Below, one piece after another: positions 1 to 18,802 of a stretch of DNA of 64,000 bases. Numbering within the stretch: position 1 is the stretch's first letter; the number at the start of each line of letters is the position of its first letter. Location: positions 409,476 to 473,475 of the forward strand of contig JAQUPL010000001.1 in assembly GCA_028716565.1 (NCBI GenBank), written 5' to 3'. Made by a program: the position numbers and the translations under genes. The DNA comes from Candidatus Omnitrophota bacterium (lineage in GTDB: Bacteria; Omnitrophota; Gorgyraeia; Pluralincolimonadales; Pluralincolimonadaceae). The notes beneath the pieces are model-generated. The model ran no database searches, was not told the DNA's origin, and worked only from the letters and a program-made list of their open reading frames with translations.

Positions 1-688
1 CTTCGGCGGCGGCGCTGCGCTCATCTTCTCCGCCGACCAAAACGGCTTTTATCCGGAACGCGTCGATCATCTTATCGCAGACTTGGGCGAATCTTTCGGC
101 CGGCCATAATTTTTCCGGGTTGCTTGTGCCCGGATGGACGGCTGCGAAACCGCCTCCGGTGATGCCGTTCCGCGCTAATATTTCCGCCGCGGCGCGTTCA
201 TCCGTCTCTGCCAAAGGAAAACAGAGTTTTTTGCTTAAGATCACGGCACCTGCGGCCTTCGCAAGGTCGAGGTTATATTCGACCTCGTGTTTCTCGCAAA
301 GGTATTTTTTGTCTTCGATCGAACGCGTAAGCAGGAACCCGAGTTTCCTGTCGTAACCTACCCTTACGGGTATCCCTGCGAGAAAGGCGGCGACATTAAA
401 AAACTTGCTCGGATTGAAGATGACGACCATATCGAACCCCGACACCCTCAGGAAGCGGATAAATCTCAAGCGCTTTGCAAACGAATCGAGATCGGGAACG
501 GGATCGAGCTTGACGATGGAATCGAAGCAGGGATTCCCCTCGACCACAGGCGAAGAAGAAGGTTTTACCAGGAGCGTAATTTTGGCGCCGGGGAAACTCT
601 CTCGTACCGAGCCGAACGCCGGGGTAGTAAGCAACAACTCTCCAATCCTGTCCGTCCTGACGAGAAGTATCCTGCGGGGCTTTAACAA
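1..688 (-). CDS. glycosyltransferase family 9 (ADP-heptose:LPS heptosyltransferase-like), C-terminal part cut by window edge
   Basis: Manual translation of the minus strand from about 688 downward gives LLKPRRILLVRTDRIGELLLTTPAFGSVRESFPGAKITLLVKPSS..., the hallmark N-terminus of GT9 heptosyltransferases. There is no ATG; the probable start is TTG at 688-686, immediately after the upstream stop at 698-696. It is absent from the ORF track because it runs off the window. Confidence 0.6.
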   Translation of the reverse strand, partial: MLKPRRILLVRTDRIGELLLTTPAFGSVRESFPGAKITLLVKPSSSPVVEGNPCFDSIVKLDPVPDLDSFAKRLRFIRFLRVSGFDMVVIFNPSKFFNVAAFLAGIPVRVGYDRKLGFLLTRSIEDKKYLCEKHEVEYNLDLAKAAGAVILSKKLCFPLAETDERAAAEILARNGITGGGFAAVHPGTSNPEKLWPAERFAQVCDKMIDAFRIKAVLVGGEDERSAAAE

Positions 689-695
689 ATTGGAC

Positions 696-2159
696 CTACT
701 CAGGCTGAACCCTTGCGACCGCGAGTCCGCACATCGACCAAAAAAGGACCGCCAGCGGAAGGGAATAGAGGTTGGTATCGACGAAACTATTGACGAGGGT
801 AGCTATTATACATGCGACCGCACCTATTGCGGCAGCTTTCAAGAACTTATCGGAAGTACCCGTAAATTTTGAGATGCCCCGGATAAAAACACTCACGCAG
901 AACCACAAAAAGACCAGAAGGCCTATTATCCCTGTCTCGGCGGCTATCTGGAGGAAACAATTATGGGCATAAACGATCCATTCATAACTAGCGGGTTTAT
1001 ATTTCTCGAATACGCTCATGAATGTATTTAACCCATGGCCGAATAAAGGCCTGTCTAAAAACATCTTCCAGCCTGTCTTCCATATTAAAAATCTGTCCAT
1101 CGAAGAGAGGTCGCTCCCTAATTTAGATAAGGAGCCCAACTGGGCCTTGATATCCGGAGGCGCGATCAACGCAGTTAATGAGACCAGTAAAGCCACTATT
1201 ATGAGCGCGGCAACGAGACGTTTCCAGCCGGTAAAGATAAGAAGAAATAAAAACCCGGCAACGAATCCCAGCCATGCGCCTCTCGCGAAAGTAAGCAGCA
1301 AACAGGCCGCAAGGACCAGGGATATCACTAAAAGCCCGATTTTTTTCTTCCAATTCATCACGCTAAAGGCAATGAGCGCAAGCGGCAAAGGCAACATTGT
1401 CGCTACATAAGTGCCGAAATCATTCGGGGCTTTGAACGCCGCGGTTATTTTCATGTCAGCGAACATGGGGAACTTCCGGAAAAGGTCATAGCCGGCCAAT
1501 CTCTGGTATATGCCGTCTATTCCGGAAAAAAAGGCGGCGATTAAAAAAGAAGAAACAAGATTAAAGACCCTCCTCGGCGTGTTAATTACATCCGCCATTA
1601 TCAGGAATATCAGAAGATATTCCATGGTCTTGAAGAGGAACGCTTCGGCGCTCATCCCAAGCCGCTGGCTTGTGAAGGCAGAGGTTATCAGGCTTACGGC
1701 CATAAAGGATAAGGTTGATGCCTTAAGGCTGAACCCATGATTTGACCTTGCGACCGCCAGGGCTACTATAAAAAAAAGTATGTTCAGGAATATGGCAAAT
1801 AGGGTTATCGGGAGGAAGACCCCGGTCACGAACAGGTCTCCTTCAATATCAAAATGGTGAGAGATGACCGCCAGGGAGATCATGATCGATGAATATACGA
1901 GGAGGACCGCCAGGATACCCACAGGAACGAGGATCTTCAATACATCGTAAGTCGATGCGGGGGGGACAAATGATTTCATCTTCCCTAGCGTCCATTCCCA
2001 TGCTTTGAGGCCGTTTTTATAAAGCCAGATCATTATCGACAATGTGGCAAAGACCTCGACCACGCTCTTGGAGGTGGGAATGAAGAAGACGAGGGTATAA
2101 AGCATATACTCGACGACCTTGTCGCAGGCCGCATAGAGTCTTTGCCTGTCGGCACTCAT
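696..2159 (-). CDS. O-antigen ligase / Wzy_C-family membrane protein (WaaL-type ligase or PglL-type O-oligosaccharyltransferase)
   Basis: 487 aa polytopic membrane protein with the Wzy_C signature YAHNCFLQIAAETGIIGLLVF. Its stop overlaps the downstream start by 4 nt. Confidence 0.7.
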   Translation of the reverse strand: MSADRQRLYAACDKVVEYMLYTLVFFIPTSKSVVEVFATLSIMIWLYKNGLKAWEWTLGKMKSFVPPASTYDVLKILVPVGILAVLLVYSSIMISLAVISHHFDIEGDLFVTGVFLPITLFAIFLNILFFIVALAVARSNHGFSLKASTLSFMAVSLITSAFTSQRLGMSAEAFLFKTMEYLLIFLIMADVINTPRRVFNLVSSFLIAAFFSGIDGIYQRLAGYDLFRKFPMFADMKITAAFKAPNDFGTYVATMLPLPLALIAFSVMNWKKKIGLLVISLVLAACLLLTFARGAWLGFVAGFLFLLIFTGWKRLVAALIIVALLVSLTALIAPPDIKAQLGSLSKLGSDLSSMDRFLIWKTGWKMFLDRPLFGHGLNTFMSVFEKYKPASYEWIVYAHNCFLQIAAETGIIGLLVFLWFCVSVFIRGISKFTGTSDKFLKAAAIGAVACIIATLVNSFVDTNLYSLPLAVLFWSMCGLAVARVQPE

Positions 2160-3946
2160 CTCAGGTATATCCCGCTTACTTGATGGTACTGCGCTCCGCT
2201 CTCCCTGCAGATCGCCTCTATATCCTCTTTTGTCTTGTTATCCGCTGAAGGTATGGCGATGATCACCTCGTCTATCGAGTGTACCTCAACCAACCGCGGG
2301 ATATCGGACCTTACTCCTAATACCGAGACTCCCTGGATCCTCCTGCCCTGCTTCGACGGATCGTCGTCTACAAATCCCACCGGCCAGTAATTAAAGGCCT
2401 TGTTCTTGCGCACCTCGCGAAGGAAGGCATCGCCGGTATCCCCCGCTCCGAAGATCAATATCTTCTTCCCTTTCGCGTCCAGCGAAACGAATATCTGCTC
2501 CTTGAAGAGCCTGAAGGCGACCCTTACCGCGGACATGAGGATCAGCAGGATCATTGCGTCCAGCAGGAATATCATCCTTGAGAAACCCTCGAACCTGAAC
2601 GCTACCACAAGCGCAGTAGCCGAAACCACGGTTCCCAGTATAACGCCTTTGACTATATTCAATATCTCGTTGAGCCCTATATATCTCCAGATATTCCCGT
2701 AAACGCCGGTGATCGAAAAAGCAAGCAGGTTTACCACTATCATTATCGGGAGTGATTTCGCTATCAGTTTAAAATTAAAGGGATCTATTACGCCGTCATA
2801 GCGGATTATATAACTGGAAAAATAAGCGATACAGATCAGACAGAGGTCGCATACTACCTCGAAAATGACCCTCTTATATTTTATCAGGGCGTCGATAAGC
2901 TCGGACTGGTTCTTGTAATATGAAACGCTGCGAGGCAATGTAGCGGCGGTTGCATCCTCTTCCCTGCGGGTCATCTTATTGAGGAACACGCCTAGCGAGA
3001 AGACTACTATGAGGAGCAGCGTCACTACCGTAATGCTTACATATGCCTTCATATACAAAGAAGCGTAGGCCGCAAGCCCGAAGAGGAGCGATATTAAATA
3101 CAGGACCGTGACCGCTTTCCTTTCGTGCCAACCGAGAAAAACCATCCTGTGGGAGGTGTGGTCTTTCCCTCCCTTTGCTACCGACCTCCCGTCTATCGTC
3201 CTGGTCACCGTGACGAAGATCGTATCGAAGATCGGGACCGCGAGCGCCAATACGGGTATAAGCAAGACGAGAAATAGGTGCGAGGCTTCTTTCCATGTCC
3301 CCATGACCGTGATCGAGGCTAGGGTAAAACCCAGGAACATCGCGCCGCAATCTCCCATAAATATCTTAGCCGGATAGAAATTATGCGGCAGGAAGCCAAG
3401 GGCCGCGCCACTCAGTATAAGCGCGAACATGGCCATTTCATGATTATTGAGCGCCAGAGCGCAGGCGAAAACAGTGAGCGAAGCGATCGCGGCAACTCCT
3501 GACGATAAGCCATCCATATTATCGAGCAGGTTAAAGGAATTGGTTATTCCGACGATCCACAGTATAGTCAACGGTATGGCCAACGCCGAAGGTATTATAT
3601 TTATCGAGACCCCCGAAATGACGGTCAGGGAAGCGCAAACTATCTGCCCGACAAGCTTGGACTGAGGGGTCAACCCCTTTAGGTCATCCGCTACTCCGAG
3701 CAAAAATATGGAGGTGCCTCCGATAAGAAGCCCAAACCCTCCCTTTAGGTCCCTGAGATAAACCAGATAGGTTAATATGAACGCGGCATATATCGCCACT
3801 CCGCCCATAATCGGTATGACGTTCTTGTGCCACCTGTCCTCTTTTGGCCTGGCCACAATACCCGCGCGGCCGGCAATCGCTTTTACCAGCGGTGTAAGGA
3901 GGAAACTGATCAAAAATGCCGTCAAAAACAAGTACAAGAATTTCAA
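2156..3946 (-). CDS. polyprenyl-phosphate HexNAc-1-phosphate transferase (WecA/MraY family) fused to a C-terminal 4-TM plus CoA_binding_3-like Rossmann module
   Basis: The N-terminal half carries the conserved NSFNLLDNMDGLSSG and FMGDCGAMFLGF motifs of WecA/WbpL/MraY. The C-terminal roughly 250 aa carry KKILIFGAGDTGDAFLREV...VGFVDDDPSKQGRRIQGVSVLG...VIIAIPSA, which normally forms the N-terminus of WbaP/PglF/CapD proteins. Confidence 0.7.
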   Translation of the reverse strand: MKFLYLFLTAFLISFLLTPLVKAIAGRAGIVARPKEDRWHKNVIPIMGGVAIYAAFILTYLVYLRDLKGGFGLLIGGTSIFLLGVADDLKGLTPQSKLVGQIVCASLTVISGVSINIIPSALAIPLTILWIVGITNSFNLLDNMDGLSSGVAAIASLTVFACALALNNHEMAMFALILSGAALGFLPHNFYPAKIFMGDCGAMFLGFTLASITVMGTWKEASHLFLVLLIPVLALAVPIFDTIFVTVTRTIDGRSVAKGGKDHTSHRMVFLGWHERKAVTVLYLISLLFGLAAYASLYMKAYVSITVVTLLLIVVFSLGVFLNKMTRREEDATAATLPRSVSYYKNQSELIDALIKYKRVIFEVVCDLCLICIAYFSSYIIRYDGVIDPFNFKLIAKSLPIMIVVNLLAFSITGVYGNIWRYIGLNEILNIVKGVILGTVVSATALVVAFRFEGFSRMIFLLDAMILLILMSAVRVAFRLFKEQIFVSLDAKGKKILIFGAGDTGDAFLREVRKNKAFNYWPVGFVDDDPSKQGRRIQGVSVLGVRSDIPRLVEVHSIDEVIIAIPSADNKTKEDIEAICRESGAQYHQVSGIYLR

Positions 3947-3948
3947 GT

Positions 3949-4914
3949 CTAAGCCTTTTCCTTTGTATACATAACAACGTCTTCGATGATAGTCTTTAGA
4001 TCCGCGGTGGGCTTGAACCCTATCAGGTCGCGTATCTTCGTCGTGTCAGGTACCCTCCTCTCCATGTCCTCGAAGCCCTCCTCATAGGCCTTTTCGTAAG
4101 GTATGCGGACTACCTTTGAGCGGCTGCCTGTTATCTCTATGACCTTTTGGGCAAGCCCTTCGATCGTGATCTCTTCCTGGCTCCCGATATTGAAGACCTG
4201 CCCGTAGGCTTTTTGGTTTTCAATGACTTTCGGAAGGGCATTCACAACGTCTTTTACGTGCAGGAAACACCTTGATTGTTTCCCGGAACCGTAAACGGTT
4301 ATATCCCTATTCTCGAGAGCCTGTTTCACGAACCTCGGGACTACCATACCGTATGCCCCCGACTGGCGGGGCCCTACGGTATTAAAAAGCCTGACGATCG
4401 TGGCCGGGACGTTCTTCTCTTTCCAATATACGTAGGCAAGCATCTCGTCCACCGCCTTGGCGGTCGAATAGCTCCATCTCGATTTAAGGGGCGAACCGAG
4501 TATCCTGTCCTGGTCCTCCTTCAGCGGCCCCTGCGTATTCTTACCGTAAATCTCGGACGTGGACGTAATGAGGACCTTTTTATGATAGCGATACGCCATC
4601 TCCAGGACGGTCTCGCTTCCTTTGATATTCGTCGTAAGGGATTCGAGGGGATGATTTACGATAAGCTCGACCCCGACTGCGGCCGCGAGATGGAATATGG
4701 CGTCGCAGCGTTCGGCCAGCTTGTCCACGAGGGATTGATTAAGGATCGTCCCCACAACAAGCTGGAAAGAGGGATTGCTCTCGAGATGTTTCACGTTTTC
4801 TATCTTCCCGGTAGAAAGATCGTCAAGGACGGTCACCTTGTGTCCCTCTCCTACCAGCTTGTCCGACAGATGGGAGCCGATAAAACCGGCCCCTCCCGTG
4901 ATCAGGTAATTCAC
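3949..4914 (-). CDS. NAD-dependent epimerase/dehydratase, UDP-glucuronate decarboxylase (UXS / ArnA C-domain)-like
   Basis: GGAGFIGSH Rossmann motif, ITSTSEIYG, YSTAK (YxxxK), RLFNTVGPRQ and ITVYGSGKQSRCFLHVKDVV match the UXS/ArnA decarboxylase family. GTG start at 4914-4912 is preceded by GGAGA. Confidence 0.6.
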   Translation of the reverse strand: MNYLITGGAGFIGSHLSDKLVGEGHKVTVLDDLSTGKIENVKHLESNPSFQLVVGTILNQSLVDKLAERCDAIFHLAAAVGVELIVNHPLESLTTNIKGSETVLEMAYRYHKKVLITSTSEIYGKNTQGPLKEDQDRILGSPLKSRWSYSTAKAVDEMLAYVYWKEKNVPATIVRLFNTVGPRQSGAYGMVVPRFVKQALENRDITVYGSGKQSRCFLHVKDVVNALPKVIENQKAYGQVFNIGSQEEITIEGLAQKVIEITGSRSKVVRIPYEKAYEEGFEDMERRVPDTTKIRDLIGFKPTADLKTIIEDVVMYTKEKA

Positions 4915-4975: not shown

Positions 4976-6154
4976 TCAATCCCTTTGGCGAAGCGCCTCT
5001 TCGTAAAGGGCTTTCATATCCTTCACAAGGCGCTCTTTGGAATATTTCTGCAGGACTTTCCGGCGGCCGTTCCTGCCGAATTCGTCCCGTTTTTCAGGAT
5101 CCACGGCCAGCTCAAGGAGGCGTTTTGCGAAACCCGCGGCATCTCCCGAAGCGACGAGACAGCCATTTATCCCGTCATCCACTACATCCTTCACGCCGCC
5201 CACATCGGTCGATACGACAGGCCTGCCGGCAGCGAGCGCCTCTATCAAAGCTACGGGAGTGCCTTCATTAAACGATGTCAGGGCGATGATATCCAGGTCC
5301 GCATATACATCGGCCATCTCCTCTTTCCATCCGTGAAAGACGATCTTCTCGCGGATCCCTGACTTCTCCGCATATCCTTCAAGCCCTGCTCTCTCTTCCC
5401 CGTCACCGATCACGATGCACTTTATATCCCGTCCGCCTGCCTTATCAAATAATTTCTTGCAGGCATCCAAAAACATCCTGTGGTTCTTGACCGGAACGAG
5501 CCTTCCGATTATCCCTATCAGGACGCAGTCATTGCCGATACCCAGCTCATTCCTGAGCTTCCCTTCCCTCGACCCGATCGAAGATAACACATCCAACTCC
5601 AGGCCTAAGGGCACTACTTTTACTTTTTCATCGCCGGTTATCTTATATTTTTTAATTATCTCTTTTTTCTGCGTCTCGCTGACTACCACTATATATTTGG
5701 AAAAAAAAGCCAGGGATCTCTCTATGAAAAGAAAGACACCGGCAGAGAAACTATTGAAATAACTCTCAAATATATGCCCGTGGAAAGTGTGTATCCTGAC
5801 CGGGATCCCCGCCAAAATTGCCGCGGCCCTTCCCAATGCACCGGCCTTGGCTGTATGGGTATGCACTATATCCGGCCTCTCCCGCCGCATGATCAAGTAC
5901 ATCTTCCATAGCGCTATGAGATCGTTTACCGGATCGATCCTTCGCCCCAATTCCGGGATGATAAGCGGTTCTACGCCTTTTCCCCTGGCCAAATAGCCCA
6001 TATCCTTTTCATCGATACCGACCCTGCCCGTAACCAGGATAGACCTGTAATATTCGTCATTTAAGGCTTGCGTCAAGAGGATGGTGTGAATGGCCGGGCC
6101 GCCTACATTCAGGCGGGCGATGATCCTGAGGACCTTCAGTTTTTTTGGGGTCAT
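4976..6154 (-). CDS. glycosyltransferase family 4 (GT-B)
   Basis: 392 aa with the EGTPVALIEALAAGRPVVSTDVGG (E-x7-E) GT4 motif. Confidence 0.7.
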   Translation of the reverse strand: MTPKKLKVLRIIARLNVGGPAIHTILLTQALNDEYYRSILVTGRVGIDEKDMGYLARGKGVEPLIIPELGRRIDPVNDLIALWKMYLIMRRERPDIVHTHTAKAGALGRAAAILAGIPVRIHTFHGHIFESYFNSFSAGVFLFIERSLAFFSKYIVVVSETQKKEIIKKYKITGDEKVKVVPLGLELDVLSSIGSREGKLRNELGIGNDCVLIGIIGRLVPVKNHRMFLDACKKLFDKAGGRDIKCIVIGDGEERAGLEGYAEKSGIREKIVFHGWKEEMADVYADLDIIALTSFNEGTPVALIEALAAGRPVVSTDVGGVKDVVDDGINGCLVASGDAAGFAKRLLELAVDPEKRDEFGRNGRRKVLQKYSKERLVKDMKALYEEALRQRD

Positions 6155-6501
6155 TTAAAAATTTTACTTAAAATAAAACTGTTCTTCTTGATCTCCTGCC
6201 AGCCGGTTTCGCAGGAAAATCCGCCCAGGCATAAAATTAAGACTGCGCTTTTTATTATCATATCAAGTAAACTCATTTCCTTGTGAAGCGCTAAATCCAA
6301 AAAAATATTCACCATGACCGCCGTAAATATAAAAATAGACGCCGATCTGACCGCTTTATTGAAAAAGCCTTGTTTGATCCTTGATAACAAGACCGCTGTT
6401 TTGCTGTTTTTTATTAAATCCCCGATGATCGACCGCGATTCACCGTAGAAACCGGACAGCCACGCCGCGACCTTGCTTTCCTCTGTCACTCTTTGGTTCA
6501 T
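6151..6501 (-). CDS. small hypothetical membrane protein
   Basis: 116 aa, two hydrophobic segments, AT-rich. It has 4-nt overlaps with both neighbours, which suggests translational coupling. Confidence 0.35.
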   Translation of the reverse strand: MNQRVTEESKVAAWLSGFYGESRSIIGDLIKNSKTAVLLSRIKQGFFNKAVRSASIFIFTAVMVNIFLDLALHKEMSLLDMIIKSAVLILCLGGFSCETGWQEIKKNSFILSKIFK

Positions 6502-7056: not shown

Positions 7057-8931
7057 TTAAATATAACCGTTCAACCAATAATAAAAGATGGCCAGATATT
7101 CACGGAATATGCCCTCTATCTGCGCAAAGCTGATCTGCTTCCAACTCCCCCCGGCATAAAAATCATCCGTCCTGTGCTTATAAAATGAATTTTTTTTCAC
7201 CGGGGTATAGGCCACTTCCAGCCCCTTGCCGGTCTTTTTAAATACAAGCGAGACCCGCCGCATATGATACGGGGAGCTTACCACGAGGATCTTGTTCCAT
7301 CCCTTATTTTTCAATATCTCCTCTGAAAATACGACATTTTGATAAGTGCTCATCGCCTTGTCTTCCAGGATGATCGCATCTTCGGGCACTCCCAGTGAAA
7401 CGGCGATGACTTTCATCATGACAGGCTCTTTGAAAATATACATATATCCCGAAGAAAAAATGATATTCTTAGCGAAACCAGCCTTATATAGCTCGACCGC
7501 GTATTCGGTCCTTTCCAGGTAACCTTGGCCTACCTTCCCCGATTCGCCTACGCCCCCGGCAAATACCACAATTGCGTCAGCCTTGCGCGGAACATCGGTT
7601 ATCTTGAGCGGCCCCGCCAAAAACCAGACAAGCGGGGTGTAAAAGATGATGAGGTAAATAAACGCTACGGCTACGGCGAGGCGCGCCAGGCGCTTTTGCG
7701 CCTTCCGGTAAAAGGCGAGCAGGTTCTCTTTCCAGCCGGCCTCGTTCCGGGCCATCTTTTCTTCAACGGCTCCCTCTATAAGCCGGCTCATCTCCTCGAT
7801 CCGGTTCTTCCAGCTGTTCTTTTGGGCATAGGCGACCCGCTTCTCTATCATACTGCTGTCATCTTCGCCCAAGGCCTTATCGATACAGGCGCTGAACTCT
7901 TCCTTATTTTCCGCTATATAAATTATGTTCCCGTATGTTTTTTTCACATGCCTGAGCTCGGGCAGGCCCGTAGAAACGACGCTTTTGCCCAACGCCAGAT
8001 ACTCGTTCAGCTTTGCCGGATAGATGCATTCGGTGAACTCGTTTATGAGATACGGTATGACCGCCACATCAAAATTATTCACGTAATTCGGCAACTCGTC
8101 GTGGGATTTCTGCCCCAGGAAATATATGTTTTTCAGCCGCGCAAGCTCCCCGACGTCCATCTGCAAAGGCCCTACAAACACAAAGGAATATTCAGGGTGC
8201 GACTCGGCCAGGTATTTGATCAACTCCTTGTCCAGCCACTTCCTCACCCCGCCCGAAAAGCCGATCACCGGCCTCCTGATGCCCTTCATGTCTACGGGCA
8301 AATCAGCCGCGCCCGTCTTACCCCTGTCGAATTTATCTATATTTACGGTGAACGGGAATTTATAGACCATTTCGTTAAACTGCGAGCAGTACGAGTAAAG
8401 CTTGTCCGCCGTAACGAATACCAGGTCGCTCATCCCAATGACCTTTTTCTCGTATTGCTCTACTTTTTTCGCCGTAGATGAGACCAGCTTAAGGTTATCA
8501 AGGCAGTAGTATATTAGTAATTTCCTGTCGATCCCGTTGATAAGGTCAAGGGTAAGGGCGGTGGGCAGAAAAACCCAGATTATGGGGTTTGTGAAATTTA
8601 GCGCCTTCATCCATTTTTTCAGGACGGATAAGATCATTATCCTGTTGATCCATCGGGCAGGCCTGAAATACGGGAAAGGCACGACCAGCGGCGAAAGGAT
8701 ATAGAGATTCGCGGATTCCTTTCTCACTCCTTTTACTCCCCTGAACCAGTTCTTGAACCTCTTTTTTATGCGCGAGATGTCCCTCACTCCCGGCATCCGC
8801 ACCCCGGTGTTCTCTATGAAAAACACCTTATTGCCGTTCTTGGCCAAAGTCAGCATTATCTCTTGATGCCCCTGCCAGATGAAATCCCAGTCTATGCTGG
8901 ATATGCAGATAATATTTTCGTTTTTGATCAT
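7057..8931 (-). CDS. GT-B glycosyltransferase fused to C-terminal DUF218 (YdcF/ElyC/SanA-like) domain
   Basis: N-terminal ICISSIDWDFIWQGHQEIM and a GT1/GT4-like core. C-terminal ADAIVVFAGGVGESGKVGQGYLERTEYAVELY...VVSSPYHMRRV matches DUF218. Confidence 0.6.
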   Translation of the reverse strand: MIKNENIICISSIDWDFIWQGHQEIMLTLAKNGNKVFFIENTGVRMPGVRDISRIKKRFKNWFRGVKGVRKESANLYILSPLVVPFPYFRPARWINRIMILSVLKKWMKALNFTNPIIWVFLPTALTLDLINGIDRKLLIYYCLDNLKLVSSTAKKVEQYEKKVIGMSDLVFVTADKLYSYCSQFNEMVYKFPFTVNIDKFDRGKTGAADLPVDMKGIRRPVIGFSGGVRKWLDKELIKYLAESHPEYSFVFVGPLQMDVGELARLKNIYFLGQKSHDELPNYVNNFDVAVIPYLINEFTECIYPAKLNEYLALGKSVVSTGLPELRHVKKTYGNIIYIAENKEEFSACIDKALGEDDSSMIEKRVAYAQKNSWKNRIEEMSRLIEGAVEEKMARNEAGWKENLLAFYRKAQKRLARLAVAVAFIYLIIFYTPLVWFLAGPLKITDVPRKADAIVVFAGGVGESGKVGQGYLERTEYAVELYKAGFAKNIIFSSGYMYIFKEPVMMKVIAVSLGVPEDAIILEDKAMSTYQNVVFSEEILKNKGWNKILVVSSPYHMRRVSLVFKKTGKGLEVAYTPVKKNSFYKHRTDDFYAGGSWKQISFAQIEGIFREYLAIFYYWLNGYI

Positions 8932-9754: not shown

Positions 9755-11260
9755 TTAGGCGGTAAGGTAGGGTTCCAGTAATTTTGTCACAGGACCCAGA
9801 TCCCTGCTATCATAATACCGGTCAACCATTTCGTTTATATCTTTCTTGTTTACTTTCTCTTCCAGGGCCAGGAAAGAGATATACATTGCCAAACGGTTAA
9901 TAAAAGAAACGTCGTTGTCCCTCCCGTCGATATTTACTTTATAATATTGCACGCCTTCGGGCGGTTTATAAAAATCATCTGTATCGGCTTCTGTGATGAA
10001 CCCGCGCTCCAGGGCCATATTGGTTATTTCTGTCTTTGGAAAATATTTTAAAGAAAACAGGTTAAGGTAGAACGGCTGGGGCAGCTCCAGGATAAGCTTG
10101 ATGCTTTCAAGCGAATCTTCGAATGTTTCGAACGGGTTATCGAAAATGAAGTCGTATTTCACATTTATGCCGTATTCCTTGAATACTTCCGCCTGTTTCA
10201 GGACTTTTTCATTCGGGTAAAACCTTTTGAAGATATCCCTCCTTATCCTCTCGGACCCCGATTGTACTCCGAGCCAGACCCCGTTCAGCATTGCTCCCTT
10301 CAACGCTTTTGCCGTCTCCCTTGAGCATGTCCCGGGATAGAAAAAACAGTAAAAAGGCAGGGCAACCTCTTTCAGATACTTGCCGCAAAATTCCTCCAAC
10401 CATGCCTTGTCCGGGATAAAGACTTCATCCAGGAAATCTATCCTTTCTATTTTCGGGAATCTCGCCTTGATCTCGGACAGTTCCGACAGCACGTGGCTGA
10501 CGCTCCTGTGCCTCGTCTTAGACCAGTCCCGGTGATAGACCTTGTTTGCCATGTATTCATTGGAGCAATATGTGCATTTATAGGGGCAACCCCTGCTGGC
10601 CATGATGCCGTACCGGACATTATTCACAAAAGGCTCTCCCGGGATCAAACTGCCGTCTTCGATGGAATATACGGTCTCATCATTAAAAACCGGTACGGGA
10701 TTGTTGTTTAGGTCCTTAACCAGAGGCCGCACGCCATTTTTTACCGTAGCCCCGGCTTTATTGACCCATAAATTCTGCAAATGGTCGATCGGCCGGCCGT
10801 TGAACAAGCTGTCAACGACCTCGGATATGGTTTCGTCTCCCTCGCCGATACATAACGCATCGCAATATTGTATGGTATGCTCGGGGTTAAGGGATGCCTG
10901 CCAGCCCCCTATTATAATGGTAAAATCGCCGAGGCCGCGGATCTTGCTATATATTTTCTTATAAAGCTCAAAGTTCGATGATACCAGGCTGAATGCTATT
11001 ACATCGGGTTTATAATCTACGACGAAATCCGCAAAGATCTGTAATTCAGTATCTGTCAATTCATTCGGTTCGTGTAAAAACGACTTTTTCAGGTACTCTT
11101 GTCCTCTCTGGTTCCTTATGGGGAATTTCTTGATAAAGACCATCCGGGCATCGTAACCTTTATGGTAGACGATCGAATGCAACAGCCTTATATTCAAGGC
11201 CTCATCGTTAAACAGCGAGGCGAACAGGACGCGGAATTGTTTTTTATCTTTCATATCCAT
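9755..11260 (-). CDS. B12-binding (class B) radical SAM protein
   Basis: N-terminal cobalamin-binding-like Rossmann region followed by RGCPYKCTYCSNEY (CxxxCxxC). Confidence 0.75.
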   Translation of the reverse strand: MDMKDKKQFRVLFASLFNDEALNIRLLHSIVYHKGYDARMVFIKKFPIRNQRGQEYLKKSFLHEPNELTDTELQIFADFVVDYKPDVIAFSLVSSNFELYKKIYSKIRGLGDFTIIIGGWQASLNPEHTIQYCDALCIGEGDETISEVVDSLFNGRPIDHLQNLWVNKAGATVKNGVRPLVKDLNNNPVPVFNDETVYSIEDGSLIPGEPFVNNVRYGIMASRGCPYKCTYCSNEYMANKVYHRDWSKTRHRSVSHVLSELSEIKARFPKIERIDFLDEVFIPDKAWLEEFCGKYLKEVALPFYCFFYPGTCSRETAKALKGAMLNGVWLGVQSGSERIRRDIFKRFYPNEKVLKQAEVFKEYGINVKYDFIFDNPFETFEDSLESIKLILELPQPFYLNLFSLKYFPKTEITNMALERGFITEADTDDFYKPPEGVQYYKVNIDGRDNDVSFINRLAMYISFLALEEKVNKKDINEMVDRYYDSRDLGPVTKLLEPYLTA

Positions 11261-11350: not shown

Positions 11351-12481
11351 ATGAAGATATTATTTATTGCAGAGCCTTTGACCTCACATACCCAAAAGTG
11401 GCTGCGTTTTTTGGGCGAAGCGGGACATCAAATTTATGTGTTATCTTATCATAACAGGTATGCCAATACAATTAAAAATGTCTCTGAAATAGCCCATTTT
11501 GAGCCCGTCAATAAGAACCCTTTCATTTTCTTAAAATACCTCCTCGAACTTAAAAAGATCGCAAAAAGAATAAAGCCGGATGCGCTGACATGCCACTATG
11601 CCCTTGGAACGCCAGGCTTATTAGCGGCGCTCTCCAGTTTCCATCCCCAAATGATAACTATTTTGGGGGGCATAGACATATACGGCCATAGATCTACGAA
11701 TTGGCTAAGATATTTAATACATAATAAACTAATGGCGAAATTTATCTTCAAAACAAGCGATATGATAATCGTCGGCTGTAAAGACCACAAACAACATTTG
11801 CTTGAAAACGGCGTACCCGGCGAAAAAATAGTCGTTATCATGGGCGATATCGGCTTAGGCGTTGACTTAAAGATGTTCAATAACAGGTACGATACCACAC
11901 AGATAAAAAGAGACCTGGATCTAACGGGTAAATTCGTGGTTTTTTGCCCCAGAAGGCTGGTTGCCTATACCAATGTGGAGCTGCTGGTAAAGTCGATCCC
12001 GTTATTAAAGGACAAAATACCCAATATCGTTTTAATGTTGCATACTTATGTCGCAGACGCCAAATATCTGGACTATATCAAAGAGCTTACCCGTAAGACC
12101 GGGATTGAAAACAATGTGGTCTTCACGGAAGAAAGGGCTTATGAAGAAATGCCCCTTCTTTATTGCGCCTCGGATTGTACCGTATCTATCTCCTCTTTCG
12201 ACGGCACGCCCTCAAGCATAGCAGAATCGATGGCCTGCAGAATCCCGGTAATAGCCTATGATATCACTTCTATCCGCGAATGGATAAAAGACGGCCAAAG
12301 CGGGATACTCATCAAAAAACTGGATCCGGAAGAGCTATCTAATGCCATTCTCAAGATCTATTCCGATAAAAAGGAGACGGAAAAAATCATTGAAAATGCG
12401 GCAAACTTTGTAGAGAAAAATCTGGACATGGAAAAATGCAAAAAAACTCTCCTGGATATATACCAAAAGATAAAGGCCTAA
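11351..12481 (+). CDS. glycosyltransferase family 4 (only plus-strand gene in the window)
   Basis: 376 aa, GT-B GT4-like, with a C-terminal E-x7-E-like region. Confidence 0.6.
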   Translation: MKILFIAEPLTSHTQKWLRFLGEAGHQIYVLSYHNRYANTIKNVSEIAHFEPVNKNPFIFLKYLLELKKIAKRIKPDALTCHYALGTPGLLAALSSFHPQMITILGGIDIYGHRSTNWLRYLIHNKLMAKFIFKTSDMIIVGCKDHKQHLLENGVPGEKIVVIMGDIGLGVDLKMFNNRYDTTQIKRDLDLTGKFVVFCPRRLVAYTNVELLVKSIPLLKDKIPNIVLMLHTYVADAKYLDYIKELTRKTGIENNVVFTEERAYEEMPLLYCASDCTVSISSFDGTPSSIAESMACRIPVIAYDITSIREWIKDGQSGILIKKLDPEELSNAILKIYSDKKETEKIIENAANFVEKNLDMEKCKKTLLDIYQKIKA

Positions 12482-13191
12482 TCCTCGGCAACCGGTTTTT
12501 TCATGAAATACATAAATCTCCTAAGCGGAGATTGGATCGCGCCCCTGCTTAGCCTCCATTTCTGAAAGTTTATAGAATCCAAATTTTTGAAAAATTTTTC
12601 ATAGTTACCGGGGATATCTCTTTTAATGCCGCTGACGGCTTTCCAGTCTCCCCCGGATAAGTCTGAAATGCCGGCTATCTGGCCTTTTTTGTTCACGAAA
12701 TAGACGCCGTTATAGACGTCAAAAACGGCCCACGTACCCCTTAAGTTCACGAACGACAAAGGTTTCCTCCCCTCCCCCGTTTCTGAATATACGTCATAAA
12801 AGAAGGAATTGACGTTTGCGTAGTTACAGAGGGTGGTAAAAACGTCCTGGAACTGGTCGTCGACCGCGTATCCCCTTATAATGATATGCCAGACATGATC
12901 GTCTATTATGGGTAATTCCTTCGGATTGTCCTTTAAGTTTGCGCGTGTCCATTCAAATATCTTCATCGCCTTATCTTCGTCGCTTTTGGCGCCCGAGACT
13001 ATCTTCTTCGCCAGGACCCCATAATTATAATGCCTGTCAAAGAAATCCAGTAATTTAAGATATAAAGGCAGCTTGACGGCATGGACTTTATAATTTACTC
13101 CCTGCAGGGTCGTGACCTCCAGGTTAAGGAGGAGCGCCGTTACGGCCAAAGCGGCGATACAGCCCAGCAACCCGTATCTGTATTTTTTCAT
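12478..13191 (-). CDS. hypothetical exported or membrane-anchored protein (last gene of the long minus-strand unit)
   Basis: N-terminal hydrophobic signal/anchor LLGCIAALAVTALLL; no confident family assignment. Confidence 0.45.
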   Translation of the reverse strand: MKKYRYGLLGCIAALAVTALLLNLEVTTLQGVNYKVHAVKLPLYLKLLDFFDRHYNYGVLAKKIVSGAKSDEDKAMKIFEWTRANLKDNPKELPIIDDHVWHIIIRGYAVDDQFQDVFTTLCNYANVNSFFYDVYSETGEGRKPLSFVNLRGTWAVFDVYNGVYFVNKKGQIAGISDLSGGDWKAVSGIKRDIPGNYEKFFKNLDSINFQKWRLSRGAIQSPLRRFMYFMKKPVAED

Positions 13192-15089
13192 ATCGCGGTA
13201 TCCATGAATTTTTTATGCCACAATTCGAGCATCAAGATCGCCCATAACTGGAATGCGTAATCTTTTTTCCCGGAGGTATGGTCTTCGACCATCCTCTTTA
13301 TCGCGCCGGGTTTAAAATACCCCCTTTTAAGAGAGGGCGCGGAAAGCACCGTGTCGCATAAGAAACCCTTGAGTTCCCCCCTGAACCATTGCCCGACCGG
13401 CATTCCGAACCCCATCTTTCTCCTGCGGATATTCTCTTCCGGAAGCAGCCCTTTGACGGCCTTTCGCAGGATGTATTTCTTTGTGCCCCGCCTGATCTTA
13501 AAATCGGAAGGCAGCTTTGCGGCAAACTCGATGAGTTTATGGTCGAGGAACGGAGACCTCGCTTCGAGGGAGTTAGCCATACTGGCTATATCAACCTTGA
13601 CCAGCAGGTCATCGGGCAGGTACGTCGAGGTATCGGCCAAAAGAAGGCGGTCCAGCAGATCCGGTTTGCCGGGGCGATTTAAGTAAGGTTCCAGGATAGC
13701 TAAAGGACCGGATGAACGGGTCTCTTTTAAAAACTCGTCCGAATACAACTCATCCGGGCGGACCTCCCCCAGGATACCGGCCCACCTTAGGTACCTCTCT
13801 CCCGCCGGCAGCCCCGCGCTGCCTAAAAATCTCTTTAACCGCCTGAGCGTATCTTTTTGATTGACAGAATCGGGAAGGATGCCCGCTAACCCGCTTATCA
13901 TGTTTCTTAAGTATATGGGTAATTTTTGCAGGTTTTCCGAGATCAGCATTGCCTGGTATCTCTCGTACCCTCCGAATGCCTCGTCGCCGCCGTCGCCGTT
14001 CAAGGCTACCGTCACGAATCGCCTTGTCTCCCGGCAGACGTAATAAGTAGGTATACAGGAGGAGTCGGCATAAGGTTCCCCGTACCTTTCTACCAACAAA
14101 GGAAGGATCTCAAGCGCGTTCGGTTTCACGATAAACTCGTGATGTTCCGTCGCGAATTTTCCCGCGACCATCCTTGCGTATTTAAGCTCGTTGTAATCGG
14201 ATTCCTCAAAACCTATTGAAAAAGTCTTTACTTTAGCGCCGGATACCTGGCTCATCAGGCCTACTACCGCGCTTGAGTCGATTCCTCCGCTTAAGAAAGC
14301 CCCCAAAGGCACATCGCTGTATAACCTGATTTTTACCGCTTCTTTGAGCAATCTTAAGACTTCCTCCGAGGCTTCTTCTTCCGAAATATTTATTTTGCCG
14401 GAATAATCAACCTGCCAGTACCGTTCCAGGCGGATATTTCCGTCTTTCAATGTCAAGGTATGCGCCGCCGGAAGCTTAAAGACGCCGTTATAGATCGTGA
14501 ACGGGGCCGGCACATAACCGAAATTCATATAATAATCAACCGCCTTGAGATTTATACTTTTATTGATTAAGCCGCTTGCCAAAATTGATGAAAATTCAGA
14601 CGCAAAACAAAAAATATTCCCCGATCGGCAATAGAGAAGCGGCTTTTTCCCTACCCTGTCTCTCCCCAAAAAAAGGTTTTTCTTTTTTTCATCCCATACC
14701 GCAAATGCAAACATGCCGCGGAGATGCCTTACGCACTCCTCTCCGTAAGTTTCGTAAAGATGTACCATGACCTCGGTGTCTGAATCAGACTTGAATATAT
14801 GCCCTCTCATTTTCAGTTCATCTTTTAGATCTTTGTAATTATATATCTCTCCGTTAAAGACCAGCTGGACCGACCCGTCCTCATTGCTCATTGGCTGGTG
14901 GCCTGCCTGGGACAGATCAATGATGCTTAGTCTCCTATGGCCCAGGGCTACGGAAGGAATCCCGTTGTTCAGATAAATACCCCCGTCATCCGGGCCCCTG
15001 TGCCTCAATTCCCTGCACATATCCTTTATCGTCTTTTCTCCCGCAATACCGCTCCCTATATGATCGACGATCCCGCAAACACCGCACAT
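13188..15089 (-). CDS. asparagine synthase (glutamine-hydrolysing) family amidotransferase (WbpS-like)
   Basis: MCGVCGI N-terminal nucleophile Cys and SGGIDSS PP-loop; 633 aa. Confidence 0.8.
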   Translation of the reverse strand: MCGVCGIVDHIGSGIAGEKTIKDMCRELRHRGPDDGGIYLNNGIPSVALGHRRLSIIDLSQAGHQPMSNEDGSVQLVFNGEIYNYKDLKDELKMRGHIFKSDSDTEVMVHLYETYGEECVRHLRGMFAFAVWDEKKKNLFLGRDRVGKKPLLYCRSGNIFCFASEFSSILASGLINKSINLKAVDYYMNFGYVPAPFTIYNGVFKLPAAHTLTLKDGNIRLERYWQVDYSGKINISEEEASEEVLRLLKEAVKIRLYSDVPLGAFLSGGIDSSAVVGLMSQVSGAKVKTFSIGFEESDYNELKYARMVAGKFATEHHEFIVKPNALEILPLLVERYGEPYADSSCIPTYYVCRETRRFVTVALNGDGGDEAFGGYERYQAMLISENLQKLPIYLRNMISGLAGILPDSVNQKDTLRRLKRFLGSAGLPAGERYLRWAGILGEVRPDELYSDEFLKETRSSGPLAILEPYLNRPGKPDLLDRLLLADTSTYLPDDLLVKVDIASMANSLEARSPFLDHKLIEFAAKLPSDFKIRRGTKKYILRKAVKGLLPEENIRRRKMGFGMPVGQWFRGELKGFLCDTVLSAPSLKRGYFKPGAIKRMVEDHTSGKKDYAFQLWAILMLELWHKKFMDTAI

Positions 15090-16181: not shown

Positions 16182-17378
16182 TCAGGTCAGCCTTCGGTAG
16201 ATCATGCTGTATTTATCGATCCCCTGCTCAAGCGAAAAATATTCTTTCGCGGAGGAGACACACTTCTTCCTGAGGCCTTCACTTACAGGTAATAATCCCG
16301 ATGCCTTCACTGCGGCTTCTTCGATCCCTCCGGGGCCTGAAAGATCGGCGACCACGCCTACGTTTTCCCTGTTTATCACCTCTTCCGTATCGCCGATGCC
16401 GGAATTGATCACTACCGGCAGGCCGCAGGATAAGCTTTCGGCAAATTTTATGGGGGAGCAGCCCGCCGAGGAGAGCCGGCGCTTATAGAACATTATTGAC
16501 AGGGCCGAGGAGGATAAGGCAAGCGGAATATCCTTGCGGGATAGACCGGTTACCGCAAAATCATGCCTGTCTATGCCGTGTCCCAAAATAACGCCCTCGA
16601 CCTCCCCGGCCGCGGAATTCGTGACCAGCCAGAAATAGGCGCCGCGGATCTTTTCCTTTAAGGCCTTAAAAAAAAGCGCCATCCCATCCAGGTCGTAAAA
16701 CGTCCCGGTGCTTCCTAAATATATTAAAACGGGCCTGTTCATTGCGTCACCGGGCAGGATATCCCCCCGCGGTTTCGGACCAAAGAACCCGGTATCAACG
16801 CAGCACGGGATGACCGTGATCGCGGCCCCGGGGAAATCCTTCTTCAGGGACCTCTCCGCCGACCCGGCCAGGACGACTATCTCATCGCTTCCTTTTATAA
16901 GCATCCTCTCTATCTTCTTGAATAACGCATAGACCGGGCTGCCTTTCTCCCAGGCACCTGCGTCGACTTTTTCGTCCGGCCAAAAACCCCTCATGTCAAA
17001 TATTAATCTTTTCCCGGCCACCCGCTTAAGAAAGAGCCCTATCAGCGCAGGGATATATCCCCTTGCGTGCACGGCCCCGACATCGCCCTTTCGTATACTT
17101 GATAACGCCGAACAAGAACCCTTTATAATGTCATAAACAGTGGCCGGGATCGCGGGTGACCTGTGGTATTTTAACGGTCCCCAGGTTATGCCGTTCTTTT
17201 CCAGCTCCGCCTTGACCTCCTCCCGGCCCTTCCCTGCGCCCATTCTTTCCTTCTTCTCGAAACTGATGACGGAGATGCCGAATCCCCTGTTTGACAATCC
17301 CTTGAGATACGGCAAGACCTGAGATTGGGCTACCGGGTCCATCAGGCCGTCATAAGTGATATACAGGATCTTCTTCAT
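16182..17378 (-). CDS. glycosyltransferase family 4
   Basis: 398 aa, GT-B, Glyco_trans_4 N-domain and GT1-type C-domain. Confidence 0.65.
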   Translation of the reverse strand: MKKILYITYDGLMDPVAQSQVLPYLKGLSNRGFGISVISFEKKERMGAGKGREEVKAELEKNGITWGPLKYHRSPAIPATVYDIIKGSCSALSSIRKGDVGAVHARGYIPALIGLFLKRVAGKRLIFDMRGFWPDEKVDAGAWEKGSPVYALFKKIERMLIKGSDEIVVLAGSAERSLKKDFPGAAITVIPCCVDTGFFGPKPRGDILPGDAMNRPVLIYLGSTGTFYDLDGMALFFKALKEKIRGAYFWLVTNSAAGEVEGVILGHGIDRHDFAVTGLSRKDIPLALSSSALSIMFYKRRLSSAGCSPIKFAESLSCGLPVVINSGIGDTEEVINRENVGVVADLSGPGGIEEAAVKASGLLPVSEGLRKKCVSSAKEYFSLEQGIDKYSMIYRRLT

Positions 17379-18802
17379 GAACCCCGGTTATCTGCCCGTT
17401 GTCTTGTAAGGGCGTACGCCGCAAATATAAAAGCGACGGGTATGAACATGTCTTTATGCCGGAAAGCCGTCCCGATATTGCTTTCGAAAAGAGCGGCAGG
17501 CAGGATAAGCACCAAGAGTAAAGCCGTGAGCGTAAGCGAGGTATACTTATCCTTCTTCAGGAAAAGCAACCATCCCGTTACGGTAAACGGGGCCATTAAA
17601 TACCAATAAATGACCTGCGGATAAAAAGGCAGGAAGCTCAGGCTCCAGTTCCCGAACGGGAACGGTGCAAAGAAAAAATACAAGATCGCTTTTAGGATAG
17701 TCGCAAGGTATCCGAAAGAAAAGACATCTCCGGGCGACAGCTTACCCTGCTGGTAGACCAGATCCGAGTATATCCTGTAATTTGTCTGAGAAGGATGGTA
17801 TGCCCCGCCCGAAACTACCTGGGCAAGGTTAATTCGGGCAATGAAATTAGCGGTATTTACGATCTTTGAGGTTATTGTCGTCCTATCCGCAAATACAAAC
17901 GCTAAGATAAAATATACGGCGAAGATCAAAGATACCCTTAGGATAGTGCTTTTCCCTACCTTAAGCGCTTTTAGAAGGGCGAATACAGAAACCACGCCCA
18001 ATCCTGCCAACAATGATATTGATAACTTAGTCCTGAAGAGGTTCGATAGATATATAAAAAGCAGGGCCCAGAATATATATTTAAACTTCTTTTCCGTGAT
18101 CAGCTTGACAAGGAATAATAAATAAGCCAAAAGCAAAAAATTACTGACGCTGTCGCGCAAGCCGGTGACAGACCAGTAGAAAATAGACGGGAAGAACGCA
18201 AAAATTACGGCGGCGATACGCGAGGGCTTCTCCTCTCCAAAGAGCCGGCGGGAGATCAAATACACAAGAATAATGCTTAAGCAGCAAATAAGGCTGTTGG
18301 TCATTTTAGCCGCGACCGGCGCATAACCGAGCCACGCATAAAAAACGCCCAACCCAAAAACATTACTGTCGAATTGGTATCCCCCGAGGTCGGGCAGCCG
18401 GTTGTCATGGAAGTACCGCGTCTTATCAAGCATCCTGTCCAAGAACGGGTCCCTGGCCCTGGCAAGGTTTTCTTCCGCGGGATTATCCTTCAACAAATGA
18501 GAGATATAAAAGGCGTTAACATTGTAGACTGCGGCGTCAGGCTGGGTATCTCCTCCCCAGAAAGGAGGCTCGAGGCCTACATTATAATTGACCAGGCACA
18601 TTGCCGCCCTGAGGATAAAACTTATGATGAAAAGTTTTATCAGGAAACTTGAGGATTCTTTTTTAAAAAATAGTTTTATTGCGAGCAGGGACGCCAAAAA
18701 AAGGGACAGGACGAATAAACCGGCGGTATAGAACGTCAAAATAAAGCCGAGGACGATCCCCAGTAAAATATATGAGAATACCGCTATTTTATTCAAGATC
18801 AT
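17375..18802 (-). CDS. polytopic membrane protein, GT-C (ArnT/PMT, GT39/83)-like or Wzy-like
   Basis: At least 10 TM segments. YLISRRLFGEEKPSRIAAVIFAFFPSIFYWS resembles the ArnT/PMT loop region. Confidence 0.4.
   Translation of the reverse strand: MILNKIAVFSYILLGIVLGFILTFYTAGLFVLSLFLASLLAIKLFFKKESSSFLIKLFIISFILRAAMCLVNYNVGLEPPFWGGDTQPDAAVYNVNAFYISHLLKDNPAEENLARARDPFLDRMLDKTRYFHDNRLPDLGGYQFDSNVFGLGVFYAWLGYAPVAAKMTNSLICCLSIILVYLISRRLFGEEKPSRIAAVIFAFFPSIFYWSVTGLRDSVSNFLLLAYLLFLVKLITEKKFKYIFWALLFIYLSNLFRTKLSISLLAGLGVVSVFALLKALKVGKSTILRVSLIFAVYFILAFVFADRTTITSKIVNTANFIARINLAQVVSGGAYHPSQTNYRIYSDLVYQQGKLSPGDVFSFGYLATILKAILYFFFAPFPFGNWSLSFLPFYPQVIYWYLMAPFTVTGWLLFLKKDKYTSLTLTALLLVLILPAALFESNIGTAFRHKDMFIPVAFIFAAYALTRQRADNRGS

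Follow-up and report, generated by a model that had tools for sequence, protein, structure and literature searches.

What does a DUF218 domain do when it is joined covalently to a glycosyltransferase (GT)? DUF218 proteins such as ElyC and SanA matter for envelope integrity and antibiotic permeability in Gram-negative bacteria. The literature on them ties the domain to competition for undecaprenyl phosphate, as the original prediction for the locus described here had rightly stated; as of 2025-2026 their biochemical activity was undefined, and the question asked in the field is whether lipid-linked precursors are their ligands or substrates (PMC12176290, PMC13251401). The gene under study lies at positions 7057-8931 of a 64,000-nucleotide stretch (hereafter the window) of contig JAQUPL010000001.1, from the Candidatus Omnitrophota assembly GCA_028716565.1. 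From its sequence alone it had been proposed to encode a GT fused to a DUF218 domain. Pfam, AlphaFold2/Foldseek and the homologues of the protein bore out this fusion within one reading frame, and we found that it belongs to a conserved cluster of glycan genes. Its sequence points to an inner-membrane protein whose two domains would lie on opposite faces of the membrane.

A single reading frame with two domains

Positions 7057-8931 hold a single unbroken open reading frame (ORF) on the minus strand, with an ATG start and 624 codons followed by a stop, and the plus-strand frame of the same interval is riddled with stops. Its start codon shares bases with the stop of the methyltransferase gene that precedes it (ATGA), which places the ORF inside an operon. 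The product is identical to the NCBI protein MDD5545955.1, annotated as 'ElyC/SanA/YdcF family protein' and encoded on a 625,636-bp contig of a Candidatus Omnitrophota metagenome-assembled genome (MAG). All three motifs cited in the original prediction were located in it (WDFIWQGHQEIM, residues 15-26; ADAIVVFAGG, 451-460; SSPYHMRRV, 552-560), and hidden Markov model searches, proposed there as a check, put both the DUF218 and the GT C-terminal domains above the Pfam cut-offs. PF02698 was matched over residues 452-614 along its entire profile (positions 1-133 of 133; E=6.2e-27, 94.6 bits against a cut-off of 27.6), which removes the doubt that the C-terminal region might not belong to DUF218. 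Two points had been absent from that description, namely the strand and a transmembrane (TM) helix lying between the two domains (residues 414-442).

The same architecture recurred in a large number of genomes. When 1.84 billion cluster representatives were searched exhaustively, 2,565 proteins came back at E<1e-30; roughly sixty of the best 150 were full-length two-domain proteins of about 600-630 amino acids (aa), down to 29% identity, and the rest of those 150 were GTs standing alone (about 390-400 aa), fragments at contig ends and giant proteins with several GTs. The best 120 of 2,711 homologues all measured 599-647 aa and all carried PF02698 together with a GT domain. A species scan, using one genome for each of 185,579 species, yielded 439 confirmed relatives, 80 of which were kept as loci; these extend over residues 1-624, falling just short of that where a contig was cut. 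The phylogenetic distribution of the fusion, which had also been suggested as a check, turned out to be mostly confined to Omnitrophota among these 80 species loci, including single-cell genomes and the closed chromosome CP070837.1. Further loci came from Acidobacteriota (L073, L078, L081, L083, L087), Nitrospinota (L055, L085), a Desulfobacterales MAG (L065) and 'ANGP1' (L086). Many TPA metagenome bins labelled 'uncultured Planctomycetia/Planctomycetales' (L019, L024, L027, L029, L037 and others) and one labelled 'Eubacteriales' encoded fusions 50-54% identical to the window protein and shared the gene module found in Omnitrophota genomes; these labels may reflect coarse or wrong taxonomy instead of a true spread.

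Such recurrence bears directly on whether a frameshift, a mis-assembly or a sequencing error had united two separate genes. The source of the sequence is a MAG, and beyond this no positive evidence speaks for an artefact. Against it, the same continuous ORF was present in more than 100 independent assemblies and in 80 species-level genomes, among them the single-cell genomes and the closed chromosome, and it was kept down to the lowest identity given above. The probability of an artefact is practically nil, and a frameshift or chimeric join is excluded as the origin of the fusion.

Relatives of the GT half devoid of DUF218 were joined to further GT4 or GT2 domains in polysaccharide clusters, a trait in common with TuaH-like/GT4-type enzymes, and such multi-GT fusions are typical of GTs working in sequence on a lipid-linked acceptor. 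Two 995-aa triple fusions (P0123 and P0125) carried an extra canonical GT4 N-terminal of the GT-TM-DUF218 unit, which extends this idea to a DUF218 attached to a sequential assembly line. The split form, a stand-alone GT gene adjoining a stand-alone TM-DUF218 gene, was not found in the two cases looked at. One of them, P0135, was rejected as a stand-alone GT, being a contig-end fragment of a fusion; the other, P0148, was a true stand-alone relative with no DUF218 gene nearby, so that GTs of this clade can occur without a link to DUF218. Automatic labels on the fusion proteins include 'ElyC/SanA/YdcF family protein' and, at JGI, 'YcdF (DUF218 family)/glycosyltransferase...', and no description of the GT-DUF218 fusion was found in the searchable literature. 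We regard it as a new variation on known families at the level of architecture, already annotated automatically.

In the GT half (residues 1-372), PF13692 (Glyco_trans_1_4) matched residues 222-354 with 38.1 bits (cut-off 27) and PF00534 (Glycos_transf_1) residues 237-360 with 28.3 bits (cut-off 26.4); a Glyco_trans_2_3 match at residues 24-126 was set aside, as its 18.6 bits fell below the cut-off of 27. Unlike the canonical GT4s of the same window, which match the GT4 N-terminal Pfam domains strongly, the fusion gave no match to these domains (PF13439, PF13579) at E up to 0.1. The nearest named family was TuaH (NCBIfam NF047676), matched partially over residues 154-383; with 106.5 bits against an equivalog cut-off of 550, orthology to TuaH was rejected. 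By sequence, the whole fusion protein matched no PDB chain at E up to 1. The AlphaFold2 model (49 relatives in the alignment; mean predicted local distance difference test score, pLDDT, of 87.3) displayed two Rossmann-like lobes, 1-205 and 206-372, which together form a GT-B fold, and Foldseek aligned this half to MshA, sucrose-phosphate synthase (SPS), BshA, PimA, WaaG, PglA and GumK in the PDB (E about 1e-14, TM-score (target) about 0.7, identity 12-17%).

Residues invariant in the close family occur in the N-terminal lobe (D14, W15, W19, G21, E24, E40-N41-T42-G43 and R45) as well as in the C-terminal one (G224, G227, G228, K307, N309, E310, Y311 and E325), and this strong conservation of both lobes suggests an active enzyme. 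In an alignment that included WaaG of E. coli and three of the window's canonical GT4s, the nearly invariant E310 fell on WaaG E289, the second Glu of the EX7E motif; a family-specific 5-residue insertion places the first acidic residue (E/D298) at x11 upstream of E310, versus x7 in EX7E. The GT half therefore shares with TuaH of B. subtilis and with GT4 enzymes the GT-B fold and a C-terminal nucleotide-sugar-binding domain with its Gly-rich loop, K307 and E310. It differs from GT4 enzymes in having E/D-x11-E in place of EX7E and no Pfam GT4 N-terminal domain, and from TuaH, MshA, BshA, PimA, WaaG and PglA in that the polypeptide continues into a TM helix and a predicted periplasmic domain. 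It is GT4-like by fold and TuaH-like by sequence, and a textbook member of neither family.

Predicted topology and the DUF218 pocket

The sole strongly hydrophobic segment of the fusion is LARLAVAVAFIYLIIFYTPLVWFLAGPL, with a Kyte-Doolittle maximum of 2.3 at residues 420-438. In the AlphaFold2 model it is part of a very long helix (DSSP, residues 374-431, continuing to 442), and the basic stretch RKAQKRLAR stands just ahead of it. The helix was kept in 48 of the 49 close and 30 of the 31 diverse relatives, and Lys and Arg were more abundant on its N-terminal side in 46 of the 49 and 30 of the 31, respectively. No N-terminal signal peptide was found in the fusion protein. A GT-B enzyme that depends on nucleotide sugars must be cytoplasmic; together with the basic N-terminal flank and the lack of a signal peptide, this argues for an N-in, C-out orientation. 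The fusion is thus predicted to be a bitopic inner-membrane protein with the GT inside and DUF218 in the periplasm. Domains placed on opposite membrane faces could not share one catalytic step. The proposed tie between DUF218 and a particular glycosyl transfer step is therefore too strong and only partly supported; it survives as a link to one pathway. The same arrangement has been reported for SanA, ElyC and YgjQ, in which an anchor precedes a periplasmic DUF218, and SanA acts in the periplasm (PMC12176290, PMC3879167). As in SanA and YgjQ of E. coli, the putative anchor of the fusion stands directly N-terminal of DUF218; the 372-aa GT occupies the place of the short cytoplasmic N-terminus of SanA.

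The model of the DUF218 domain is a five-stranded alpha/beta domain (453-621) with a glycine-rich loop, GGVGESG (459-465), after strand 1 and an aromatic C-terminal helix (602-621). In this C-terminal part the NCBIfam models of ElyC (NF007794; 24.8 bits, cut-off 205) and SanA (NF008092; 18.7 bits, cut-off 363) scored far under their equivalog cut-offs, and orthology to either protein was rejected. We then aligned the C-terminal 220 residues with SanA, ElyC, YdcF and YgjQ of E. coli (from NC_000913.3). T125, H149 and E182 of SanA aligned with T529, H556 and E611 of the fusion, and R69 and R152 with R474 and R559; all five pocket positions required in SanA are therefore matched, and in both proteins the conserved Glu is borne by a C-terminal amphipathic/aromatic helix. 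Substitution of T125, H149 or E182 by Ala abolishes complementation by SanA (PMC12176290), and R69 and R152 are loss-of-function positions within its predicted pocket (PMC13251401).

R474, R559, E611, E463, E473, G459, G460 and G462 were invariant in the 49 close relatives. Among the 31 diverse ones R559 and E611 remained invariant, and R474, T529 and H556 were each present in at least 90%. Unlike in SanA, the His and Thr positions were replaced in part of the fusion family: ten of the 49 close relatives had Asn at position 556, and five of them also had Ala at position 529. A strict Thr/His/Glu catalytic triad as a requirement of the family was rejected on account of these variants. What stays constant is the pair of arginines, the Glu carried by the aromatic helix at the C-terminus, and the Gly-rich loop that follows strand 1. 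As for the Asn-556 subset, either the His is not catalytic or these proteins form a subclade with a non-catalytic, binding-only DUF218.

No solved structure is close to this domain. A profile search of the PDB retrieved a single chain, YdcF (3CA8), with a marginal E=0.024; Foldseek with a DUF218-only model (pLDDT 88) gave nothing better than E=1e-3 and left YdcF outside the top 50, so that no enzymatic analogue can be inferred. In Rossmann-like alpha/beta folds of the kind seen in YdcF, which resemble adenine-nucleotide alpha-hydrolases, such a Gly-rich loop usually holds a diphosphate. Given this loop and the two invariant arginines, the diphosphate of a sugar linked to undecaprenyl diphosphate (Und-PP) is, by analogy, a plausible ligand of DUF218.

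A cytoplasmic DUF218, placed beside the GT on the same membrane face, was implicit in the original prediction; the hydrophobic segment would then not span the membrane and the domain, like YdcF, might for instance bind S-adenosylmethionine (SAM) or a nucleotide cofactor and modify the same intermediate. YdcF, the only solved DUF218 protein and the sole solved relative found by sequence, is a cytoplasmic protein that binds SAM according to the work cited in PMC12176290 and PMC3879167, and relatives of the fusion bear the JGI label 'SAM-binding protein YcdF (DUF218 family)'. We consider this placement very improbable, because the segment is 27-29 residues long, strongly hydrophobic, flanked as the positive-inside rule predicts and conserved family-wide. 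Moreover, the soluble YdcF belongs to the same Pfam family with marginal similarity and lacks the pocket residues (C126, T154 and G181 stand in place of Thr, His and Glu), whereas the fusion matches the membrane-anchored SanA, ElyC and YgjQ at these positions.

If DUF218 is indeed periplasmic, the TM helix and the domain might serve mainly as an anchor or scaffold, tethering the GT to the inner membrane or docking it to periplasmic or membrane partners (the DUF4330 protein, the two-TM protein and the Wzy_C protein described below) without binding a small molecule. A GT-B enzyme that works on a lipid-linked acceptor has to associate with the membrane, two co-conserved membrane proteins are encoded after the fusion, and some lineages, with H556N and T529A, dispense with the putative triad. 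However, the DUF218 core was as conserved as the catalytic GT lobes: mean pairwise identity was 0.63 for the core and 0.65 and 0.53 for the two lobes in the close set (0.32 and 0.37 and 0.36, respectively, in the diverse set), far above the 0.44-0.46 (close) and 0.21-0.28 (diverse) of the linker and TM helix, with linker 373-413 being the least conserved region of the protein. This conservation speaks against DUF218 as a mere anchor, for which one TM helix would be enough, and the positions essential in SanA are retained, three of them invariantly in the close relatives. A purely structural role is hence quite improbable.

The conserved gene module and a possible role for the fusion

The fusion is followed on the same strand by a series of genes (Table 1) whose order is repeated around relatives 53-62% identical to it. 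Module counts were made on the 80 species loci, considering same-strand downstream genes and, as denominators, the loci with enough flank. A WecA-type initiating transferase was present within 10 kb downstream in 35 of 45 loci, including those of Acidobacteriota, where the order is fusion, GT4, WecA-type transferase. The canonical GT4 and the epimerase were each found in 36/45 loci, and the Wzy_C protein in 24/44. The DUF4330 gene, whose strong ribosome-binding site lies 28 nt past the fusion stop, was immediately downstream in 25 of 68 loci and within 9 kb in 24 of 45. In contrast to this conserved series, the genes upstream of the fusion vary and include those for an AsnB-like amidotransferase, methyltransferases and B12-radical SAM enzymes. 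The fusion is therefore part of the conserved core of the cluster and not of its variable tailoring part.

Table 1. Coordinates (window positions) of the fusion, its parts and the genes of the downstream module.
Feature	Position	Strand	Evidence
Whole ORF: GT-B, TM helix, DUF218	7057..8931	-	ORF list/translation, Pfam, exact database match
GT-B glycosyltransferase (predicted cytoplasmic), TuaH-like/GT4-like, residues 1-372	7816..8931	-	Pfam, NCBIfam, AlphaFold2/Foldseek, conservation
Juxtamembrane long helix running into the TM helix, residues 373-413	7693..7815	-	DSSP of model, charge count
Single TM helix LARLAVAVAFIYLIIFYTPLVWFLAGPL, residues 414-442	7606..7692	-	Hydropathy, conservation
DUF218 domain (predicted periplasmic), residues 443-624	7060..7605	-	Pfam, alignments, conservation, domain model
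DUF4330 protein, 176 aa, one N-terminal TM helix	6498..7028	-	Pfam PF14221, E=2e-18
116-aa ORF, two TM helices, no family match, overlaps DUF4330 stop	6151..6501	-	Pfam/NCBIfam
Canonical GT4 glycosyltransferase	4976..6154	-	Pfam, NCBIfam
NAD-dependent sugar epimerase/dehydratase	3949..4914	-	Pfam, NCBIfam
Initiating polyprenyl-phosphate sugar-1-phosphate transferase, WecA/MraY-type	2156..3946	-	Pfam PF00953, NCBIfam
Wzy_C-family membrane protein, O-antigen ligase/polymerase-like	696..2159	-	Pfam PF04932, E=1e-26
GT9 heptosyltransferase-like gene, N-terminal part, leaves window edge	1..695	-	Translation RRILLVRTDRIGELLLTTP...

The position of the fusion is also relevant to the idea that DUF218 tailors or processes the finished or growing polymer in the periplasm, perhaps as a hydrolase or transferase, and does not govern lipid-linked intermediates; being fused would then simply ensure co-expression and co-localisation with the assembly machinery. 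A conserved polar pocket suggests a site for catalysis or binding, tailoring enzymes abound in the cluster (methyltransferases, B12-radical SAM enzymes, an AsnB-like amidotransferase), and the authors of the SanA papers deem an enzymatic role likely (PMC12176290, PMC13251401). Yet the fusion stands in the conserved core, beside the initiating transferase and outside the variable tailoring part, and the His and Thr positions are substituted in part of the family. We judge such a tailoring function unlikely.

The reading that we prefer links DUF218 to carrier-lipid use, and it builds on what genetics has told about ElyC and SanA. Loss of SanA raises lipid II availability, and the published proposal is that its pocket binds or alters a molecule of the inner membrane, most likely lipid II (PMC13251401). 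ElyC restrains the enterobacterial common antigen (ECA), a polymer initiated by WecA (PMC12212991), and its loss raises ECA and leaves peptidoglycan synthesis short of carrier (PMC3879167, PMC12212991); the tie of ElyC to undecaprenyl-phosphate-dependent ECA and to carrier-lipid competition is drawn in PMC3879167 and, as cited in PMC12212991, in PMC8609368. The fusion has in common with ElyC (YcbC) of Enterobacterales a DUF218 on the periplasmic side, in its case predicted, and a link to a WecA-type pathway, here by gene order. Differently from the fusion, ElyC contains two TM helices and lacks an enzyme domain, its gene lies outside the wec cluster, and it affects a phosphoglyceride-linked form of ECA with no known counterpart at the fusion locus. 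SanA, in turn, is linked genetically to lipid II and peptidoglycan, whereas the fusion resides in a WecA-initiated surface-glycan cluster. At most, then, the fusion would resemble SanA/YgjQ and ElyC most in its way of working: an anchored periplasmic DUF218, the same pocket and an ElyC-like link to a WecA-initiated glycan. The fusion and its conserved neighbourhood support the view that DUF218 is tied here to one undecaprenyl-phosphate-dependent glycan pathway, as far as gene order and sequence can tell.

We put at about even the chance that the cytoplasmic GT extends an Und-PP-linked glycan and that the periplasmic DUF218 pocket binds or processes the same intermediate, governing flux through the pathway; the topology, the lipid-linked acceptor, the DUF218 ligand and any regulatory or catalytic effect are what we infer in this model. 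In it, the neighbouring WecA-type transferase would prime the Und-PP-linked acceptor, and the GT-B half (1-372) would add a sugar from a nucleotide sugar to the resulting Und-PP-linked oligosaccharide at the cytoplasmic face; the glycan so built may be an O-antigen, a core extension or another polymer. The TM helix (414-442) would set DUF218 (443-624) on the periplasmic face, at the membrane surface, where its SanA-type pocket would be made of the Gly-rich loop, the two arginines, Thr/His and the invariant Glu on an interfacial aromatic helix. After flipping, DUF218 would probably bind, and possibly cleave or alter, the diphosphate-sugar head group of the lipid-linked intermediate of the pathway. 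It may thereby limit or channel the supply to the Wzy_C/WaaL-like enzyme and the carrier lipid held by the pathway. This would be the role that genetics has given to ElyC for ECA and to SanA for lipid II, hard-wired to one pathway.

Several observations weigh against this reading and should be considered. The existence of a stand-alone GT relative with no DUF218 gene nearby means that the GT has no intrinsic need of DUF218, and the topology is a prediction from hydropathy and charge. The DUF218 domain, far below the equivalog cut-offs, is an orthologue of neither ElyC nor SanA, and the variants at H556 (10/49) and T529 (5/49) speak against a strict triad in the family. There is no DUF218 protein with known activity, and the ligand proposed here extrapolates from genetic work in E. 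coli.

A bolder version of the same reading, which we hold to be quite improbable, would make the fusion a trans-membrane flux governor: occupancy or hydrolysis of a flipped Und-PP-glycan in the periplasmic DUF218 pocket would gate the GT via the continuous helix 374-442, and DUF218 would be a general module for binding or cleaving polyprenyl-diphosphate-glycans. If true, this would amount to a direct feedback on carrier-lipid use inside one polypeptide, and such a module, with its Gly-rich loop and two arginines gripping the diphosphate, would explain the ElyC and SanA phenotypes. Apart from this version, the fusion family offers independent evolutionary support, from phyla distant from Enterobacterales, for DUF218 acting on undecaprenyl-linked glycan pathways from the periplasm, and it points to a candidate family of substrates, the product of the neighbouring transferases. 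Its value is that of a lead and a fairly robust evolutionary clue that does not settle the mechanism. The bacteria that carry it are uncultured, and some members of the family have lost the proposed catalytic His.

Regarding the remaining members of the module, no paper on DUF4330 was found in the searchable literature. A recognisable homologue of the 116-aa ORF occupied the same position in 9 of 65 loci, its sequence being poorly conserved, and in L005 and L009 the slot was filled by an unannotated small ORF; the DUF4330 protein and the two-TM protein may be partners of the fusion in the membrane. The initiating transferase has a hybrid make-up, with PF00953/ECA_wecA at residues 7-320 and EPS_sugtrans (NCBIfam) at 366-590; the latter part resembles the non-catalytic N-terminal half (TM plus CoA_binding_3) of WbaP/WcaJ, without the catalytic Bac_transf domain. 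This hybrid architecture (594-596 aa) was conserved beside the fusion in L005 and L009. The Wzy_C protein gave weak matches to RfaL and O-glycosylation ligase models (NCBIfam). The heptosyltransferase-like gene of the window was putatively assigned by sequence resemblance, and PF01075 genes lie at its position in L005 and L009.

The wider window

Almost the whole window (1-64000) is a single minus-strand array of about 55 glycan-biosynthesis genes. On this strand it encodes at least four B12-binding radical SAM enzymes (9755-11260, 21045-22436, 22441-23913 and 34156-35649), many SAM methyltransferases, two PMT_2/GT-C proteins (17375-18802 and 19756-21063), an AsnB-like amidotransferase (13188-15089), a CMP-sugar cytidylyltransferase with an HpcH aldolase (38089-39626) and an amidase (43324-44676). 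The window is an unusually large, heavily tailored surface-glycan locus. Four minus-strand ORFs of the glycan operon had no Pfam match at E up to 1e-5: 29278-31005 (575 aa), 41465-43327 (620 aa), 44673-45824 (383 aa) and 35646-36461 (271 aa). No Wzx-type (Polysacc_synt) gene was seen among the roughly 47 window genes scanned; a half-size ABC exporter (39619-41445, minus strand), for which the MsbA and PglK models score about equally, is a candidate flippase for the lipid-linked oligosaccharide.

Upstream of the fusion, a lone plus-strand GT4 gene (11351-12481) breaks the otherwise minus-strand operon. A minus-strand gene (12478-13191) encodes a protein of 237 aa that begins with a hydrophobic segment and gives a sub-threshold match to a transglutaminase core; in several other genomes (e.g. 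L015, L022, L026, L032 and L068) this protein is again encoded between the AsnB-like gene and the fusion.

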